From the IMG/VR virus record IMGVR_UViG_2703718872_000024: a DNA stretch of 5,560 bases. One strand, written 5' to 3'. The notes under the pieces were generated by a model. It searched no databases. It worked only from the letters and a program-made list of their open reading frames with translations, and was not told the origin of the DNA. Source of the stretch: a virus. Its lineage: Duplodnaviria; Heunggongvirae; Uroviricota; Caudoviricetes. How positions within the stretch are numbered: the stretch's first letter is position 1; each line of letters begins with the position of its first letter. The position numbers and the translations under genes are program-made. Below are positions 1-5,560 of the stretch, piece after piece.

Positions 1-3000
1 GGTACAGGCCCGCCTTGCCCGTGGCAACGCGCCGACGGCGGAGGAGCTTGTACGTTCACAGATGGCTGAAGGTGATGCCGGTCCGACAGCACAGGAGTTA
101 ACTGAGCGTCCGCGTCTGCCCGCCCCCGGCGATATTCATCCCGGACAGGGATATCCGTTACCGGGAGAAGTGGCGCGTACGCCGGATGAAAATCAGGCCG
201 GACGTGGTGGTCGTTTTACCACAACCGGTGAGGTGAAGGGCCAGAGTTTCCAGAAAGGACGTGCGCAGGCACCGGAAAATGCCGCTGGTCGCCAGGGGGA
301 AATTCTGGAGGGCGAACCGGTTCGTCGTGGTCTGCCGTCACCGGATGAGCAGAACGCCACAGCACCAGTGCGTGAAGGACTTCCTGCACCTGAAAGTCAG
401 CGTGGGGTTGATATGCCACAGCCTGAATCACTCCCTCGTATGGTTCGTGACTCCCTTCCGGAACTGGCACAGCAGGCAGAAGCACGCAGACAGACCGGGG
501 ATCGCCAGACCATAACCGATGTTCCGGATACTGAGGTGCCGGTAGATAAACCGAGCACTCACCAGCAGGCGCGTGGTGCGAAAATTGAAGACTTTGGCGA
601 GGAGATTAAGGGCGCGGCAAAACACCGTTATGCGCAGCTTGCTGAAGCTATGGGTAAAACGCTGGAGGATGGGGAGTACGCGACACAACCACTGAGCAAA
701 CTGTTTCCAAAGCCGGATTATGCTCGTCTGGAAAAAGAAGGTGTGGATAGTGACACGCTGGCAATGATGGCGTTGTATCGCAGTGAAATTCCCACCAGAA
801 CAAGCCGTAACATGCAGAAATGGATCAGCATTGTTAAAAGCGGTCGCGAAGCTACTGCCGGTATGCTGGAGGGGAAAATTCCGGCAGCGAAACTGGCTGA
901 TATGATGGACAGTAAGCCGGGGTTACGGAGCATGTCGGATACCTGGAAACTGCTCCGTACGCTTTCTGCATTGCAGATTGATAAAGCATCCGGCTATCGT
1001 GTCAGGTCCGGTGTTTATTCGTTTGTCGGGGGAAAACGTTACGATCCGCCGCAAATGATGTATTCGCTTCGTGATAGCAAGGGGCGCGACCTCTTTTTCT
1101 CGGAAAGCCGGGATGAGTTACTGAAAAAGGCGAAAGCATATTTCGATGAACAAGGCTCCAGAGAAAGGGAAACGCCAGCAACCTCTGCTGATGACAGAAT
1201 AACCTTTGACGTGTACCGGCATAAGGCCAGTGGCGACATTTTTATCGGTTATGGCAAAAACAGGCAGAAACTGAAGGGCGGTTTTGAGTCTGCCCGTGAT
1301 GCACATGATTATGTGCGCACACATCGTGATGAGCTGGTTAATCAGGTGAAGGCGCTGCGTGAAGTCTCGCGTGAGGAGCAGCGTAACGCCACCAACCGCG
1401 ATCGTACCGGACCAGAACGCCGCAAGGGGGATGTTTCGCCGGAGCAGTTCAGTGATGCGTTTGGTTTTCGTGGTGTGCAGTTTGGTAATTATGTGGAAAG
1501 TCCGCGTCGTCAGGCTGATTTGAACCGGGCTTATGACTCGCTGCATGACCTGGCTGACGTGCTGAACGTGCCGACAAAAGCGCTTTCTCTGAACGGTCGT
1601 CTTGGGCTTGCTTTTGGTGCCCGTGGTAAGGGTAAGGCGGCGGCACACTATGAGCCGGGTGAGGTGGCAATCAACCTGACAAAAGGTAACGGACCGGGGG
1701 CGCTGGCCCACGAATGGTTCCATTCACTGGATAATTATTTTGGTCGTTATGATGTTTCCACTGACGGGAAGATCACGTCAGGTGGCGACTATATGACGGA
1801 AGCACAGCGTGCCGGGCGCGTATTTAAAGACGGCAGGTATGTTGATGCGGAATATCCGGTACGTCAGGAGGTTTACGACGCGTTTAAAGGCGTGATGAAA
1901 GCCATTAACAGCAGTGACATGTTGCGTCGTTCTGAACGCCTGGATGGCGTTCGTTCAAAACCGTACTGGTCAACGGATGTTGAAATGGCGGCGCGAGCCT
2001 TTGAGCGTTATGTTCAGGATAAAGCGCGTATGGCTGGCGTGGAGAATGATTATCTGGTCAATATCCGTAAGGCGGATGACCATGGACAGCCGGACACCTA
2101 CGCTTATCCGACGAATGCAGAACTGGATGGCGGTATTCGTGAGGCATTCGATCACTTGTTCCGAACACTGAAAACCCGTGAGACGGACAAGGGAGTTGCG
2201 TTTTATTCCCGTAAGGGCGTGACCCGCACACCTGAAGGCAATCTGATTTCGGATGTTAACCGCAGTGCGGAAGCCAAAGGCAGTCCGGTCTCGCAGGTTG
2301 AAGCTGTTGCCCGTGGCGTGATGAGCGGCATTAAGGACAGTGACCTGAAGGTCCGTGTGGTGAAGTCACAGAAAGAGGCTGAAGCGCTGGCGGGTGAATC
2401 GTTCGACGGTTACGGCAGGGTGCACGCATTCTATCGTCCGGATAAACGAGAAATTGTCCTGGTGGCGGATAACATCCCTGACGGGCGGACCGTACGCGAG
2501 AAGTTGCGTCACGAGATTATCCACCATGCCATGGAGCATGTTGTCACGCCAGCGGAATATCAGACGATTATCAAAACCGTGCTGAAAACCCGCGACAGTG
2601 ATAACGCCACCATCCGTGAAGCATGGCGTAAGGTTGATGCGTCCTATGGTAAGGAATCTCCGGAAGTACAGGCGGGTGAATTTCTGGCACATATGGCGGA
2701 GAAACAGCCGAATAAATTCGTGGCGGCATGGGAGCGTGTTGTTGCTCTGGTCAAAGGGGTACTGCGTCGTACGGGGTTACTGAAGCCGACGGAACTGAAC
2801 GATATCAGACTTGTTCGCGAGACCATCCGTACGTTAGGCCAGCGTGTGCGGGAAGGTTACACGCCGCGTGAGGATGGCGTGGGCGCATCGTCTCAGTACT
2901 CCCGTAGTGGTAAGCCTGATCCGTTCAAAGTGCCGGAAGGTGAGGGTGAACGTTATCGTGATGACCTTGCCAGAATGATGAAGTCGTTACGTTCTGGTGC

Positions 3001-5560
3001 AATGACTGCAAACATTGGGCGTACGCCGCCGGTATTGCGCCACCTTGGCGCACCGGATTTGCCGCTGGTTATCTCCCGCGACACTGTACGGAAGGCAACC
3101 AATGGCGTGAAACATGTGGTGCCAATGGATGTTATCGAGAGACTCCCGGAACTGATGCATGATCCGGATGCAATTTACCGTTCCGCGACAGAAAGAAATG
3201 CAGTTGTGATGCTGCTTGATGCCGTGGATAAAAATGGCGATCCGGTGGTGTCGGCAGTGCACATGAAGGCGACAGGTAAACGTCTGGAAATTAACAAAGT
3301 GGCTTCTGTATATGGTACGGAAAACGGGAAAAAGCTGAAAAGCATGGAAATGGCTGGATTAACGCTTTACCGGAAGGAAAAATTAAGCCGCGATAACCCT
3401 CAGTACAGTGGGCTCCAATTGCCCAAAGAGGAGCGTTCTTATCGCGGCTCTGTAGATAAAATACTCTATCCTGAAGATATTCGCAAGGGGCCGTATTACT
3501 CCCGTACCAGCAGTCTGACACCGGAAGAGACAATTATATCGCGTTTTGTGCGCCAGATGCAGGATAAATTCCGGGTGCTGAAAGCTGTTCAGGAGAATAT
3601 CCGTAAAACTGGCGGAAAAATAGACGATAGTAACAACGCTTATATGGCGGAAGAACTCTTCCACGGGAAGGCGGAAAACGACCTGAACGTGATGAAGGAG
3701 CGCTACGTTCAGCCACTGGCTAAATTACTGGCGGACTACAAAATTGCGCAGGCCGATCTGGATGAGTACCTCTACGCCCGTCACGCGCCGGAACGTAACG
3801 CACATATCGCGAAAATCAACCCGAAAATGCCGGACGGCGGTTCGGGGATGACCAACGCGGAAGCGGCGGAAATCATGCAGCGTGTGCGTAACAGTGGCAA
3901 ACAGGCACAGTATGACCGTCTGGCTGGGATTGTTGACGATATGCTGGCCCGTCGCCGTGAGCTTATCCGTGAGGCCGGACTGGAAGAGAGCGGAGTGGTG
4001 GATGCCTGGCAGAACGCCTACCGTTACTACGTTCCCCTGAAAGGTCAGGATGTTGACGGTATGGTGTCACTGCCCCGTACAGGTAAGGGCTTCACCATCG
4101 GCGGACGTGAAAGCAGGCAGGCCATGGGGCGTGCATCCCGTGCACAGTCTCCGTCCACTCAGGCGATACAGGACCTGAGCGAATCGCTGATCCGCCATCG
4201 CAAAAACGAAGTGGGTAACGCCTTCCTGAAACTGGTGCAGGATAATCCTGACAAGGATTACTGGCAGGTCTTCACTGATGACAGACCTGATACCATGCGT
4301 GCGATTGCAGAGCGTGTTGATCCGGAAACCGGTGAAACCCGTCGCGAAGTTGTCGAACGCCCTGTACCGATGGCAATGATGGCAGACCGGTACTTCACCA
4401 CCAAAAAGAACGGCAAAACGTACTACATCAAACTCCATGATCCGCGCCTGATGCGTGCGATGAAGAGTATGGGACCGGAAACCAGCAATGCCTTTGTTCG
4501 TACGCTGGGGAAAGTTAACCGCTTCCTGGCAACGGTGAACACGTCGTATAACCCGGAATTCCTGGTCAGTAACTTCATCCGTGACGTGCAGACGGCGGTG
4601 ATGAACCTGAAGGCGGAGCAGGGAAGGAGCGACGGTAAACTGAAAGGGCTGGATAACTTATCCGCCCTGGCTGTAGCCAAAGACAGCCGTTCTGCCATGT
4701 CAGCCGTATACGCCAGTCTGCGTGGTAAAACCCTCACGGGAAAAGGTGCACAGTGGCAGAAGGTGTGGAAAGAGTTTGTTGAGGACGGAGGGAAAACCGG
4801 CTGGTTTAACATGGGTGACCTTGAAGGCCAGCAGAAGGAAATGGATCGCCTTGTCTCACTGGCGAAGGGGGGATGGAAAGGCCAGAGTATCGGTGCATGG
4901 AATTCGTTCCTTAACCTTGTCGAGGATGCCAACGGTGCGGTTGAAAACGCTCTGCGTCTTTCTGCCTATAAACATGCCCGTGATGCCGGTTTGTCACGCC
5001 AGCAGGCGGCGTCTCTTGCCAAAAATATGACGGTGAACTTTAACCGTCGTGGTGAGCAGGGGGCGCTGATGAATTCGCTGTACATGTTCGCCAACGCCAG
5101 CATTCAGGGAACGGCAAATCTGGTGAGAACGCTCGGACATCTTAATGGAGAGGGACCTTTACTGGAGCGCCTTCGCTGGAAGAATCTGAATGTTCCGCAG
5201 AAAATCGCGCTTGCCGCTGTGGGAGCGGGTTATCTGCTTGGCTCGCTTAACCGCAGCGTGGCGGGTGAGGATGATGACGGGGTTAACTGGTATGACAAGG
5301 TGCCGTCTCATGTGAAAGAGCGTAACCTCGTCATTATGAAATCGGTGTTCGGGGGCAAGGCCGGAGAGTACTGGAGTATTCCTCTGCCTTACGGGTACAA
5401 CGTTTTCTTCCTGCTTGGTCACACAGCCGAAGGGGTGGCAGCGGGCGACCTGACCGCTTCACGTGCTGCCGGTAATGTTGTTGGTGGTGTGCTTGGGGCA
5501 TTCAGTCCTGTGGGCAGTGAAACGTCGGAAACACTGTCCGGGGCATTGCTGAAAAATGCA
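1..5560 (+). CDS. Internal fragment (5' and 3' truncated by the window) of a giant multidomain protein of more than 1,853 aa; hypothetically a phage/conjugative-element 'polyvalent' protein with zincin-like HExxH modules. Codon phase: first complete codon at nt 2-4, last at nt 5558-5560.
   Basis: Manual translation of frame 2 gives 1,853 consecutive sense codons and no TAA/TAG/TGA. The chance of this in random sequence is about (61/64)^1853, roughly 1e-39. Codon choice is strongly biased toward CTG/CCG/CGT/GCG/AAA/GAA. All other frames and the minus strand are broken into short ORFs. No start or stop codon for this gene lies in the window. Confidence 0.9.
20..560 (+). other. Low-complexity, probably disordered N-terminal region of the encoded protein (Pro/Glu/Gly/Arg/Gln-rich)
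   Basis: The translation reads ...GDAGPTAQELTERPRLPAPGDIHPGQGYPLPGEVARTPDENQAGRGGRFTTTGEVKGQSFQKGRAQAPENAAGRQGEILEGEPVRRGLPSPDEQNATAPVREGLPAPESQRGVDMPQPESLPRMVRDSLPELAQQAEARRQTGDRQTITDVPDTEVPVDKPSTHQQARG... It has few hydrophobic residues and recurring LPxP(D/E) motifs. Confidence 0.55.
317..466 (+). repeat. Degenerate tandem peptide repeat (about 16 aa per unit) within the low-complexity region; repeated at protein level, diverged at DNA level
   Basis: Unit 1 at nt 317-364 encodes PVRRGLPSPDEQNATA. Unit 2 at nt 365-412 encodes PVREGLPAPESQRGVD. A looser third unit at nt 413-466 encodes MPQPESLPRMVRDSLPEL. A related motif YPLPGEVARTPDENQ lies upstream at nt 152-196. The two main units use different codons (for example ccggttcgtcgtggtctgccg versus ccagtgcgtgaaggacttcct). 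Confidence 0.5.
1440..1760 (+). other. Candidate zincin-like metallopeptidase module (HExxH motif HEWFH at nt 1709-1723)
   Basis: The translation reads ...SPEQFSDAFGFRGVQFGNYVESPRRQADLNRAYDSLHDLADVLNVPTKALSLNGRLGLAFGARGKGKAAAHYEPGEVAINLTKGNGPGALAHEWFHSLDNYFGRYD... The H-E-W-F-H codons are cac gaa tgg ttc cat at nt 1709-1723. The Gly-rich FGFRGVQFGNY segment lies at nt 1460-1492. The call rests on the motif only; the fold is not verified. Confidence 0.45.
2402..2560 (+). other. Second candidate HExxH metallopeptidase-like module (HEIIHHAMEH at nt 2510-2539)
   Basis: The translation reads ...FDGYGRVHAFYRPDKREIVLVADNIPDGRTVREKLRHEIIHHAMEHVVTPAEYQTIIKTV... The HExxH residues are encoded at nt 2510-2524, followed by H at 2525-2527 and E-H at 2534-2539 as possible extra ligands. 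The call rests on the motif only. Confidence 0.4.
5201..5560 (+). other. Gly/Ala-rich, partly hydrophobic segment of the encoded protein (possible membrane-interacting or flexible region)
   Basis: KIALAAVGAGYLLGSL is encoded at nt 5201-5248. Further on come ...YWSIPLPYGYNVFFLLGHTAEGVAAGDLTASRAAGNVVGGVLGAFSPVGSETSETLSGALLKNA. The hydrophobic runs are about 15 residues, short for a canonical transmembrane helix. Confidence 0.3.

Follow-up and report, generated by a model that had tools for sequence, protein, structure and literature searches.

The 5,560-nucleotide (nt) stretch of viral DNA examined here (IMG/VR record IMGVR_UViG_2703718872_000024, Caudoviricetes; hereafter the window) lies wholly within one giant gene of short-tailed Shiga toxin (Stx) phages. 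We propose, with a probability of roughly 0.55, that it encodes the central and C-terminal parts of an internal ('pilot' or ejection) polyvalent protein, which is ejected and then processed in the cell by its own zincin metallopeptidase domains. Its sequence places the protein in the polyvalent class: it is 2,780 amino acids (aa) long, it combines several unrelated domains including LPDs, and its gene stands in the virion block. Self-processing, injection and a role against host defences are what we infer. A first-pass annotation, made from the letters of the window alone, had put forward for nt 1440-2560 a giant polyvalent, possibly injected, anti-defence or effector protein with self-processing peptidase modules. 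The polyvalent part of that proposal is upheld by Pfam, where LPD5, LPD1, MuF_C and LPD38 all score above their cut-offs of 27-27.6.

A giant packaged protein of Stx phages

Frame +2 of the window is open on the plus strand from nt 2 to nt 5560, giving 1,853 codons with no stop, and each of the other five frames has 25-157 stops. The encoded fragment matches phrog_616 at 4,068 bits, and the DNA is about 100% identical to two complete Escherichia coli chromosomes. One of these is 2012EL-2448, where the full gene measures 8,343 nt and its product is WP_106913417.1, named 'LPD38 domain-containing protein' at RefSeq. The window holds residues 702-2554 of this 2,780-aa open reading frame (ORF), without the 701 N-terminal and 226 C-terminal residues; the very large size remarked on in the first pass is real for both fragment and full protein. 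Residue numbers below are those of the window frame unless another protein is named.

Matches to the window DNA were found in 186 phage records at 90-97% identity and in 426 of 5,426 complete E. coli genomes (8%). The phage matches are short-tailed Stx phages (933W-like, VT2-Sakai, Stx2-converting phage 86, Min27 and phi24B), and the window protein has 89% aa identity to gp47 of phi24B (vb_24B_48). In 2012EL-2448 the giant gene is the final late gene of a 933W/phi24B-type Stx prophage, closing a late block that holds an N4-gp56-type capsid protein, tail fibres and Lom, with ymdF and the rut operon adjoining. Because the gene sits in the late block of an Stx prophage and recurs across phage records, the locus is a mobile element and not a conserved housekeeping locus, the context that the first pass had named as a refutation.

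Direct evidence on the fate of the protein comes from phi24B. Its gp47, a 2,811-aa frame, is abundant in purified virions, is invisible in cryo-electron microscopy (cryo-EM) and negative-stain reconstructions, and has been proposed to be an encapsidated ejection protein (bioRxiv 10.64898/2026.04.10.717836). The supplementary table of that preprint lists 10,962 peptide-spectrum matches (PSMs) for gp47, second only to the capsid protein, with peptides recorded from aa 133 to aa 2701 of gp47 and both zincin modules covered. We reread the gel data in the supplement, where slices are ordered from high to low mass, with the portal peak in the fifth listed slice and the capsid peak in the eleventh. 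Counts for gp47 by slice run 2188, 1686, 1187, 1260, 663, 447 and onward (bioRxiv 10.64898/2026.04.10.717836), such that most of the signal lies above 80 kDa and the maximum is in the top slice. The top-slice signal and the full-length spread of peptides together argue that gp47 is packaged whole or nearly whole, untrimmed beforehand, unlike P1 DdrB; any cleavage would therefore come after packaging. Peptide counts in the preprint are pooled over samples and slice counts are at the protein level, so fragments are not assignable to regions. A rough spectral-count ratio in the batch sample, with portal, nozzle, spike and needle as references, puts gp47 at about 10-25 copies per virion, a figure that is only indicative. 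Virion proteomics had been suggested as a check in the first pass, and for the claim of possible injection it supports the packaging step, while ejection is a step that we infer.

Zincin modules, PBECR domain and protein layout

Exactly two HExxH motifs occur in the window, HEWFH at aa 570-574 (nt 1709-1723) and HEIIH at aa 837-841 (nt 2510-2524), against 0.037 expected from composition; two or more were seen in 0.04% of 5,000 shuffles. The motifs are not chance and, judged by their alignments, each marks a zincin domain with conserved catalytic residues. Both domains are confidently modelled as zincin folds with an invariant downstream Glu, so the two HExxH modules named in the first pass stand, and zinc-dependent peptidase activity is predicted for each from sequence and model.

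Module 1, probably of the CLCA_X or phage-type metallopeptidase (MPTase) class, spans aa 487-730 (nt 1460-2191, plus strand). Its key residues are H549, the HEWFHSLD segment at aa 570-577 (nt 1709-1732) and E661 and E668 on a later Glu helix (nt 1982-2005). The NCBIfam profile CLCA_X (NF041907) aligns over its positions 3-245 of 250 with an E-value of 2.7e-45, scoring 154.8 bits against an NCBI whole-protein cut-off of 260, and the HExxHxxxD motif is present as HEWFHSLD. A search with module 1 gave 395 homologues, and many of these stand alone at about 330 aa and are annotated as LPD5+LPD1. In an alignment of 50 sequences E661 and R665 never vary, and conservation reaches 90% or more at H549, H570, E571, H574, D577 and E668. 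AlphaFold gives a confident model (predicted local distance difference test, pLDDT, 90.9; predicted template modelling score, pTM, 0.90), which runs through a long helix, three strands, the HExxH helix and a later helix bearing the Glu residues, which is the zincin order. A three-stranded sheet before the active-site helix, the HExxH helix itself and Glu as third zinc ligand on a later helix are together the features of gluzincins. The Pfam LPD1 match (aa 647-726, 81.7 bits) opens with this Glu helix; LPD1 is thus best read as the C-terminal half of the module 1 peptidase, and not as a separate domain.

CLCA_X proteins are found mainly in phages, prophages and plasmids, often inside very long proteins (Lenart et al. 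2013, PMC3650047). Module 1 also carries the signature of a widespread phage-type MPTase clade, in which a His closes strand 2 and HExxH is followed three residues on by an Asp (PMC5512222). A standalone version, an LPD5-zincin-LPD1 protein of 336 aa, is encoded on a 59.9-kb metagenomic phage contig (L004:10001-11011). Its gene lies in a long run of genes for proteins of 60-240 aa, downstream of a helix-turn-helix gene, and the terminase, portal and S78-protease genes point away from this run; a related contig is alike. In this setting the standalone cassette looks like an early gene.

Module 2 spans aa 780-960 (nt 2339-2881, plus strand), with a confident core at aa 767-905, and its key residues are the HEIIH motif and E893 and E900 (nt 2678-2701). 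The interval given in the first pass ended at nt 2560, which cuts the module before its invariant Glu helix; the domain reaches about nt 2881. Word-indexed searches with module 2 and with MuF_C brought up nothing beyond short pieces of the same Enterobacterial proteins, and homologues of module 2 were therefore sought exhaustively in 1.84 billion representative proteins. This yielded 376 matches at E≤1e-3, nearly all in proteins of 1,500-6,000 aa. Among 150 aligned domains from 50%-identity representatives, E838, H841 and E893 are invariant, H837 is kept in 149 and E900 in 141. Pfam has no model matching module 2 and gave no relevant family in a scan of 33 diverse homologues; the module 2 profile found only marginal, irrelevant matches among PDB sequences, where the full protein likewise had no match at E≤1. 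The structural model is confident over its residues 1-140 (pLDDT about 90 or above) and poorer beyond, and shows the gluzincin set of HExxH helix, downstream Glu helix and zincin fold. The nearest folds of the two zincins are protein endopeptidases (lethal factor, Pro-Pro endopeptidase, CLCA_X and SprT), and their fold neighbours also include botulinum light chain, IrrE/PprI, CapP and Spartan, which cleave specific proteins (toxins, regulators).

A third putative enzyme follows. The MuF_C or PBECR domain occupies aa 1010-1127 (nt 3029-3382, plus strand; Pfam MuF_C E 4.3e-18), the Pfam match itself covering aa 1036-1127 at 65.8 bits against a cut-off of 27.6. MuF-C is a PBECR domain, a predicted metal-independent endoribonuclease (RNase) of the BECR fold with a His in its first helix and a Ser or Thr in a late strand (PMC5512222). 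The candidate catalytic residues here are H1038 (nt 3113) and S1102 (nt 3305). Across 24 homologues H1038 is conserved in 23, H1087 in 22 and S1102 in all. Because H1038 and S1102 are kept, the domain looks active, and RNase activity is predicted. The phi24B preprint reports only LPD5, LPD1, LPD38 and MuF-C in gp47, without mention of the two zincin modules, and labels MuF-C 'a metallopeptidase domain', suggesting peptidoglycan digestion (bioRxiv 10.64898/2026.04.10.717836). That assignment is in conflict with the published BECR RNase fold (PMC5512222). The N-terminal head-morphogenesis domain of MuF was not found by Pfam in the window or the full protein.

Pfam and NCBIfam (E≤0.1) matched no NTPase or methyltransferase family to either the window or the full protein, and the window has no Walker A motif (GxxxxGK[ST]), in agreement with what the first pass had said. 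It had counted only two GKT segments, where there are four; AMGKT (aa 216-220) and LRGKT (aa 1573-1577) had been overlooked, and none of the four fits Walker A.

The conserved C-terminal region, which we call the chassis, covers aa 1165-1761 (nt 3494-5284, plus strand) and is supported by tblastn, by matches to phrog_14770 and phrog_10691, by a hydropathy scan and by co-occurrence with module 2. In tblastn, aa 1165-1853 are 44% identical to Vibrio phage proteins, and the C-terminal region is 29% identical over about 540 aa (E about 5e-47) to giant 'DarB-like' proteins of Burkholderia and Ralstonia podophages. LPD38 begins at aa 1762 and runs past the end of the window (aa 1762-1853, nt 5285-5560, plus strand; Pfam E 1.7e-14, 54.8 bits); in the full protein it scores 163.7 bits (E 6.7e-48) over profile positions 2-189 of 189 and closes a C-terminal module of about 1,000 aa. 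Two hydrophobic Gly-rich segments, one in the N-terminal module (full-protein aa 182-208, outside the window) and one just before LPD38 (window aa 1731-1753, nt 5192-5260), are the only hydrophobic stretches in the 2,780 residues. They are candidates for membrane insertion on ejection.

To compare architectures, segments of the protein were mapped onto 147 representatives, 110 of them at least 1,500 aa long. The N-terminal module is present in 69 of these 110 long relatives, at their own N-terminus (median start at residue 20), and the full C-terminal set (C1, C2, LPD38 and the C-terminal end) in about 50 (51 with the C-terminal module). LPD5, module 1 or MuF_C occurs in only 15-23 of the 110. 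The number of residues following module 2 has a median of 953 (10th-90th percentile 793-1,170), independent of total length. These comparisons indicate that three parts, namely the N-terminal module, module 2 and the C-terminal module, stay constant as a frame, and that what lies between the first two of them is a variable cargo region; module 2 sits where cargo meets frame.

A composition scan finds long polar linkers parting all domains. The first, at aa 1-195 (nt 2-586, plus strand), is a disorder-prone linker rich in P, A, G, E, R and Q with short degenerate repeats: PTA[E/Q]EL, EN.AGR and PVR[R/E]GLP[S/A]P each occur twice, and near-matching 7-mer pairs number 10 against 0.85 in shuffles. 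No DNA tandem repeats of substance were found in it. The disordered, repeat-bearing linker of the first pass thus exists, but lies outside the interval (nt 1440-2560) to which it had been assigned. The sole linker within that interval is the polar segment between the zincin modules at aa 731-779 (nt 2192-2338, plus strand), outside both modelled domains, which is a candidate cleavage region. Two further linkers lie at aa 960-1010 and aa 1128-1165.

Between the first linker and module 1 lie a further segment and the LPD5 domain (together nt 587-1459, plus strand; Pfam LPD5 E 1.7e-43), the LPD5 match itself being at aa 343-486 (nt 1028-1459, 148.8 bits). By eye, aa ~130-460 (nt ~390-1380, the linker end plus LPD5) are clearly divergent from phi24B gp47, with several indels, and the remaining ~1,500 residues are nearly identical. 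Matches in the plasmid database, at 92% identity, align in three pieces spanning 93% of the query. Such a mosaic suggests allelic exchange of, or diversifying selection on, LPD5, and a divergence pattern of this kind is typical of a conflict-facing or recombining segment.

Proposed processing and ejection, and rival readings

In the scheme that we favour, the protein would be stored unfolded or disordered in the T=9 capsid and would leave with the DNA by way of the tail. Packaging and crossing of the envelope would fall to the constant C-terminal module and its hydrophobic Gly-rich segment. Once in the cell, the two zinc peptidases would cut the polar linkers, mainly in cis and possibly host proteins too, and so would free the variable cargo, made up of an LPD5-zincin cassette plus the RNase, to act in the first minutes of infection. 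The same scheme was proposed for phage polyvalent proteins by Iyer et al. 2017 (PMC5512222).

Several points weigh against it. Pfam finds no known anti-restriction domain in either the window or the full protein. The mostly high-mass signal in stored phi24B virions implies that the zincins are not efficient self-cleavers inside the capsid; the lower-mass tail of gp47 could be partial cleavage or storage decay, and plain degradation over six months' storage could account for it. The MPTase domains of the N4 virion RNA polymerase (vRNAP), ArdC and TraC1 do not keep the first from being packaged uncleaved or the other two from being transferred at full length (PMC5512222). For module 2, the final ~60 residues of the model are of low confidence, and its best structural matches include the catalytically dead N-domain of lethal factor. 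The early-gene context of the standalone cassette, finally, comes from one related contig group only.

A more specific form of the ejected, zincin-processed protein can be drawn from the architecture of the relatives. Here the N-terminal module, module 2 and the LPD38 C-terminal module of about 1,000 aa would make up a self-cleaving translocation frame common to hundreds of giant podophage proteins, with module 2 as release protease at the cargo/frame border. The Stx phage cargo would be a diversifying LPD5-CLCA_X protease cassette and an active PBECR RNase, directed at host defence or gene expression in the first minutes of infection. We offer this modular delivery vehicle tentatively, as a possibility that is more doubtful than probable.

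The phi24B preprint sees instead a mainly structural protein of ejection, which lengthens the short tail to span the periplasm and whose metallopeptidase activity opens a path for this conduit by digesting peptidoglycan. Podoviruses do require a trans-envelope channel; the protein is abundant, internal and unseen in the cryo-EM map, its conserved C-terminal module carries a hydrophobic Gly-rich segment, and the annotation of some Burkholderia-phage homologues with a lytic transglycosylase implies that cell-wall enzymes ride on the same frame. The peptidase of this proposal, however, is MuF-C, which has an RNase fold, and both real zincins resemble protein endopeptidases. To our knowledge the two are unlike the peptidoglycan peptidase families M15, M23 and NlpC/P60, which also counts against it. 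Searches with Pfam, NCBIfam and fold comparison gave no lysozyme, SLT/transglycosylase or peptidoglycan-peptidase domain here, and the genes that surround the standalone module 1 cassette are small and non-structural. Because the folds are endopeptidase-like, a cell-wall hydrolase domain was not found and standalone cassettes occur among small genes, an early cytoplasmic role is preferred to cell-wall digestion. As a whole the proposal is rather unlikely, with only its peptidoglycan target disfavoured; a C-terminal conduit is compatible with the ejected and processed protein that we favour.

Also unlikely, in our estimation, is that the giant protein stays whole and that one or both zincins are injected proteases cutting host proteins, such as those of defence or stress. 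This option was listed for MPTase domains by Iyer et al. (PMC5512222), and it suits the nearest folds, cleavers of specific proteins such as lethal factor, botulinum light chain, IrrE/PprI, CapP and Spartan. It would also suit the largely intact state of the protein in virions and the existence of standalone versions, which have nothing to process. Against this, module 2 is fixed at the variable/constant border, more like a processing site than a free effector, and the domains are all parted by long polar linkers.

That the protein is an inert scaffold, filling the capsid or forming its core while the enzyme-like domains are decayed relics, strikes us as very improbable. In its favour, the MuF-C of phage Mu is considered inactive (PMC5512222). 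Relics would not retain catalytic residues, however, and HExxH and Glu are invariant over 150 divergent module 2 domains and 50 module 1 homologues, with the PBECR His and Ser also kept. A non-mobile chromosomal adhesin or secreted toxin, which the large size, the disordered repeats and a 'putative leader peptide' in the phi24B record might suggest, is refuted by the genomic context (the gene is confined to phages and prophages, in the 186 phage records and 8% of E. coli genomes noted above) and by detection inside virions, and in addition Pfam gave no adhesin or toxin-secretion domain in the window or the full protein, whose N-terminus (MAYSEEQRPEAQ...) has no hydrophobic signal core.

Neighbouring features, known systems and significance

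Some features of the locus stand apart from the above. In the chromosome matching at about 100%, the N4-gp56-type major capsid gene is annotated as frameshifted and an IS1A lies among the tail-fibre genes (L001:411-1624 and L001:7254-7951), with the 8.3-kb giant ORF intact despite the frameshifted capsid gene; this prophage copy may be defective. Four genes lie directly upstream of the giant gene (L001:15166-17829), and their phi24B counterparts gp51, gp50 and gp48 (421 aa) were also detected in virions; proteins of this type may be co-packaged partners of the giant protein. A 90-aa protein among them has weak glycine-zipper matches, all under the Pfam cut-offs. On the minus strand an antisense ORF of 201 aa (nt 1118-1723) overlaps module 1, and similar antisense ORFs are annotated in phi24B records. 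Since those inside the phi24B gene drew only 0-2 PSMs in six-frame proteomics, antisense ORFs of this kind are probably not genes. The coding strand is G-rich throughout the window, with GC skew positive in every 500-nt segment (+0.01 to +0.19) and at least +0.08 except at about nt 4000-4750. GC content is 47-50% at nt 3000-3750 and 52-62% elsewhere.

The closest known systems are the orthologues in phi24B (gp47, ADN68472.1), 933W, VT2-Sakai, phage 86 and Min27, where the same gene holds the same place, as last late gene after four small virion-protein genes. Phi24B gp47 has the domain order of the window and is virion-associated by mass spectrometry; its LPD5 block is a divergent allele. With the polyvalent proteins at large (PMC5512222) the protein shares a giant polypeptide from the virion block, LPDs, more than one zincin MPTase, a PBECR RNase and the phage-only LPD38, but it is without their commonest effectors (ART, SNF2 ATPase plus adenine methylase, ArdC-N, ParB and lysozyme). 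The CLCA_X family (PMC3650047) is probably represented here, by one domain of a giant protein, fused to LPD5. MuF and SPP1 gp7 head proteins fused to toxins have in common with it a MuF-C (PBECR) domain with His and Ser; the N-terminal domain of MuF is where they differ.

The 'DarB-like' proteins of Bcep22-like Burkholderia and Ralstonia podophages (BcepIL02, DC1, and gp69 of JC1) share the C-terminal module, a position at the end of the virion block and related capsid, portal and nozzle proteins. JC1 gp69, of 4,515 aa, was detected in virions, and the tail and portal of phi24B resemble those of Ralstonia phage GP4 (bioRxiv 10.64898/2026.04.10.717836). For DC1 the record lists lytic transglycosylase, helicase and methylase domains, none of which is in the window protein. 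P1 DarB, large, packaged in the head and acting at entry, offers an analogy only. Membership of its family was rejected, as Pfam and NCBIfam (E≤0.1) gave neither an N6-adenine methyltransferase nor a helicase match for the window or for the full protein. N4 gp50, the vRNAP, is likewise a giant internal podovirus protein with an MPTase domain, packaged unprocessed, and the prophage capsid protein also belongs to the N4-gp56 family. An N4-like vRNAP was nevertheless rejected, with no RNA polymerase domain found by Pfam, and neither phmmer with the full protein nor hmmsearch with the 150-sequence module 2 profile gave any significant similarity to N4 gp50.

As regards the kind of protein, the first-pass suggestion of something possibly undescribed is wrong, for the polyvalent class, CLCA_X zincins and the phi24B orthologue have already been published (PMC5512222, PMC3650047, bioRxiv 10.64898/2026.04.10.717836), and the present work refines rather than discovers. 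It adds the placing and validation of both zincins, the recognition that LPD1 belongs to the module 1 peptidase, a module 2 family without a match in Pfam, the intact candidate residues of PBECR and a layout of frame and cargo, and it corrects the published assignment of a peptidase to MuF-C. Residues for mutation are now named (E571, E838, H1038 and S1102), as are linkers that are candidates for cleavage.

Short-tailed Stx phages carry Shiga toxin genes from one E. coli to another, and some 14% of their genome (8.3 of ~60 kb) is given over to this one protein, whose function the phi24B preprint lists as an open question. If the tentative delivery-vehicle reading is true, the cargo would consist of new effectors that medically important phages inject, and module 2 would stand for a family of release proteases that forms a new class.

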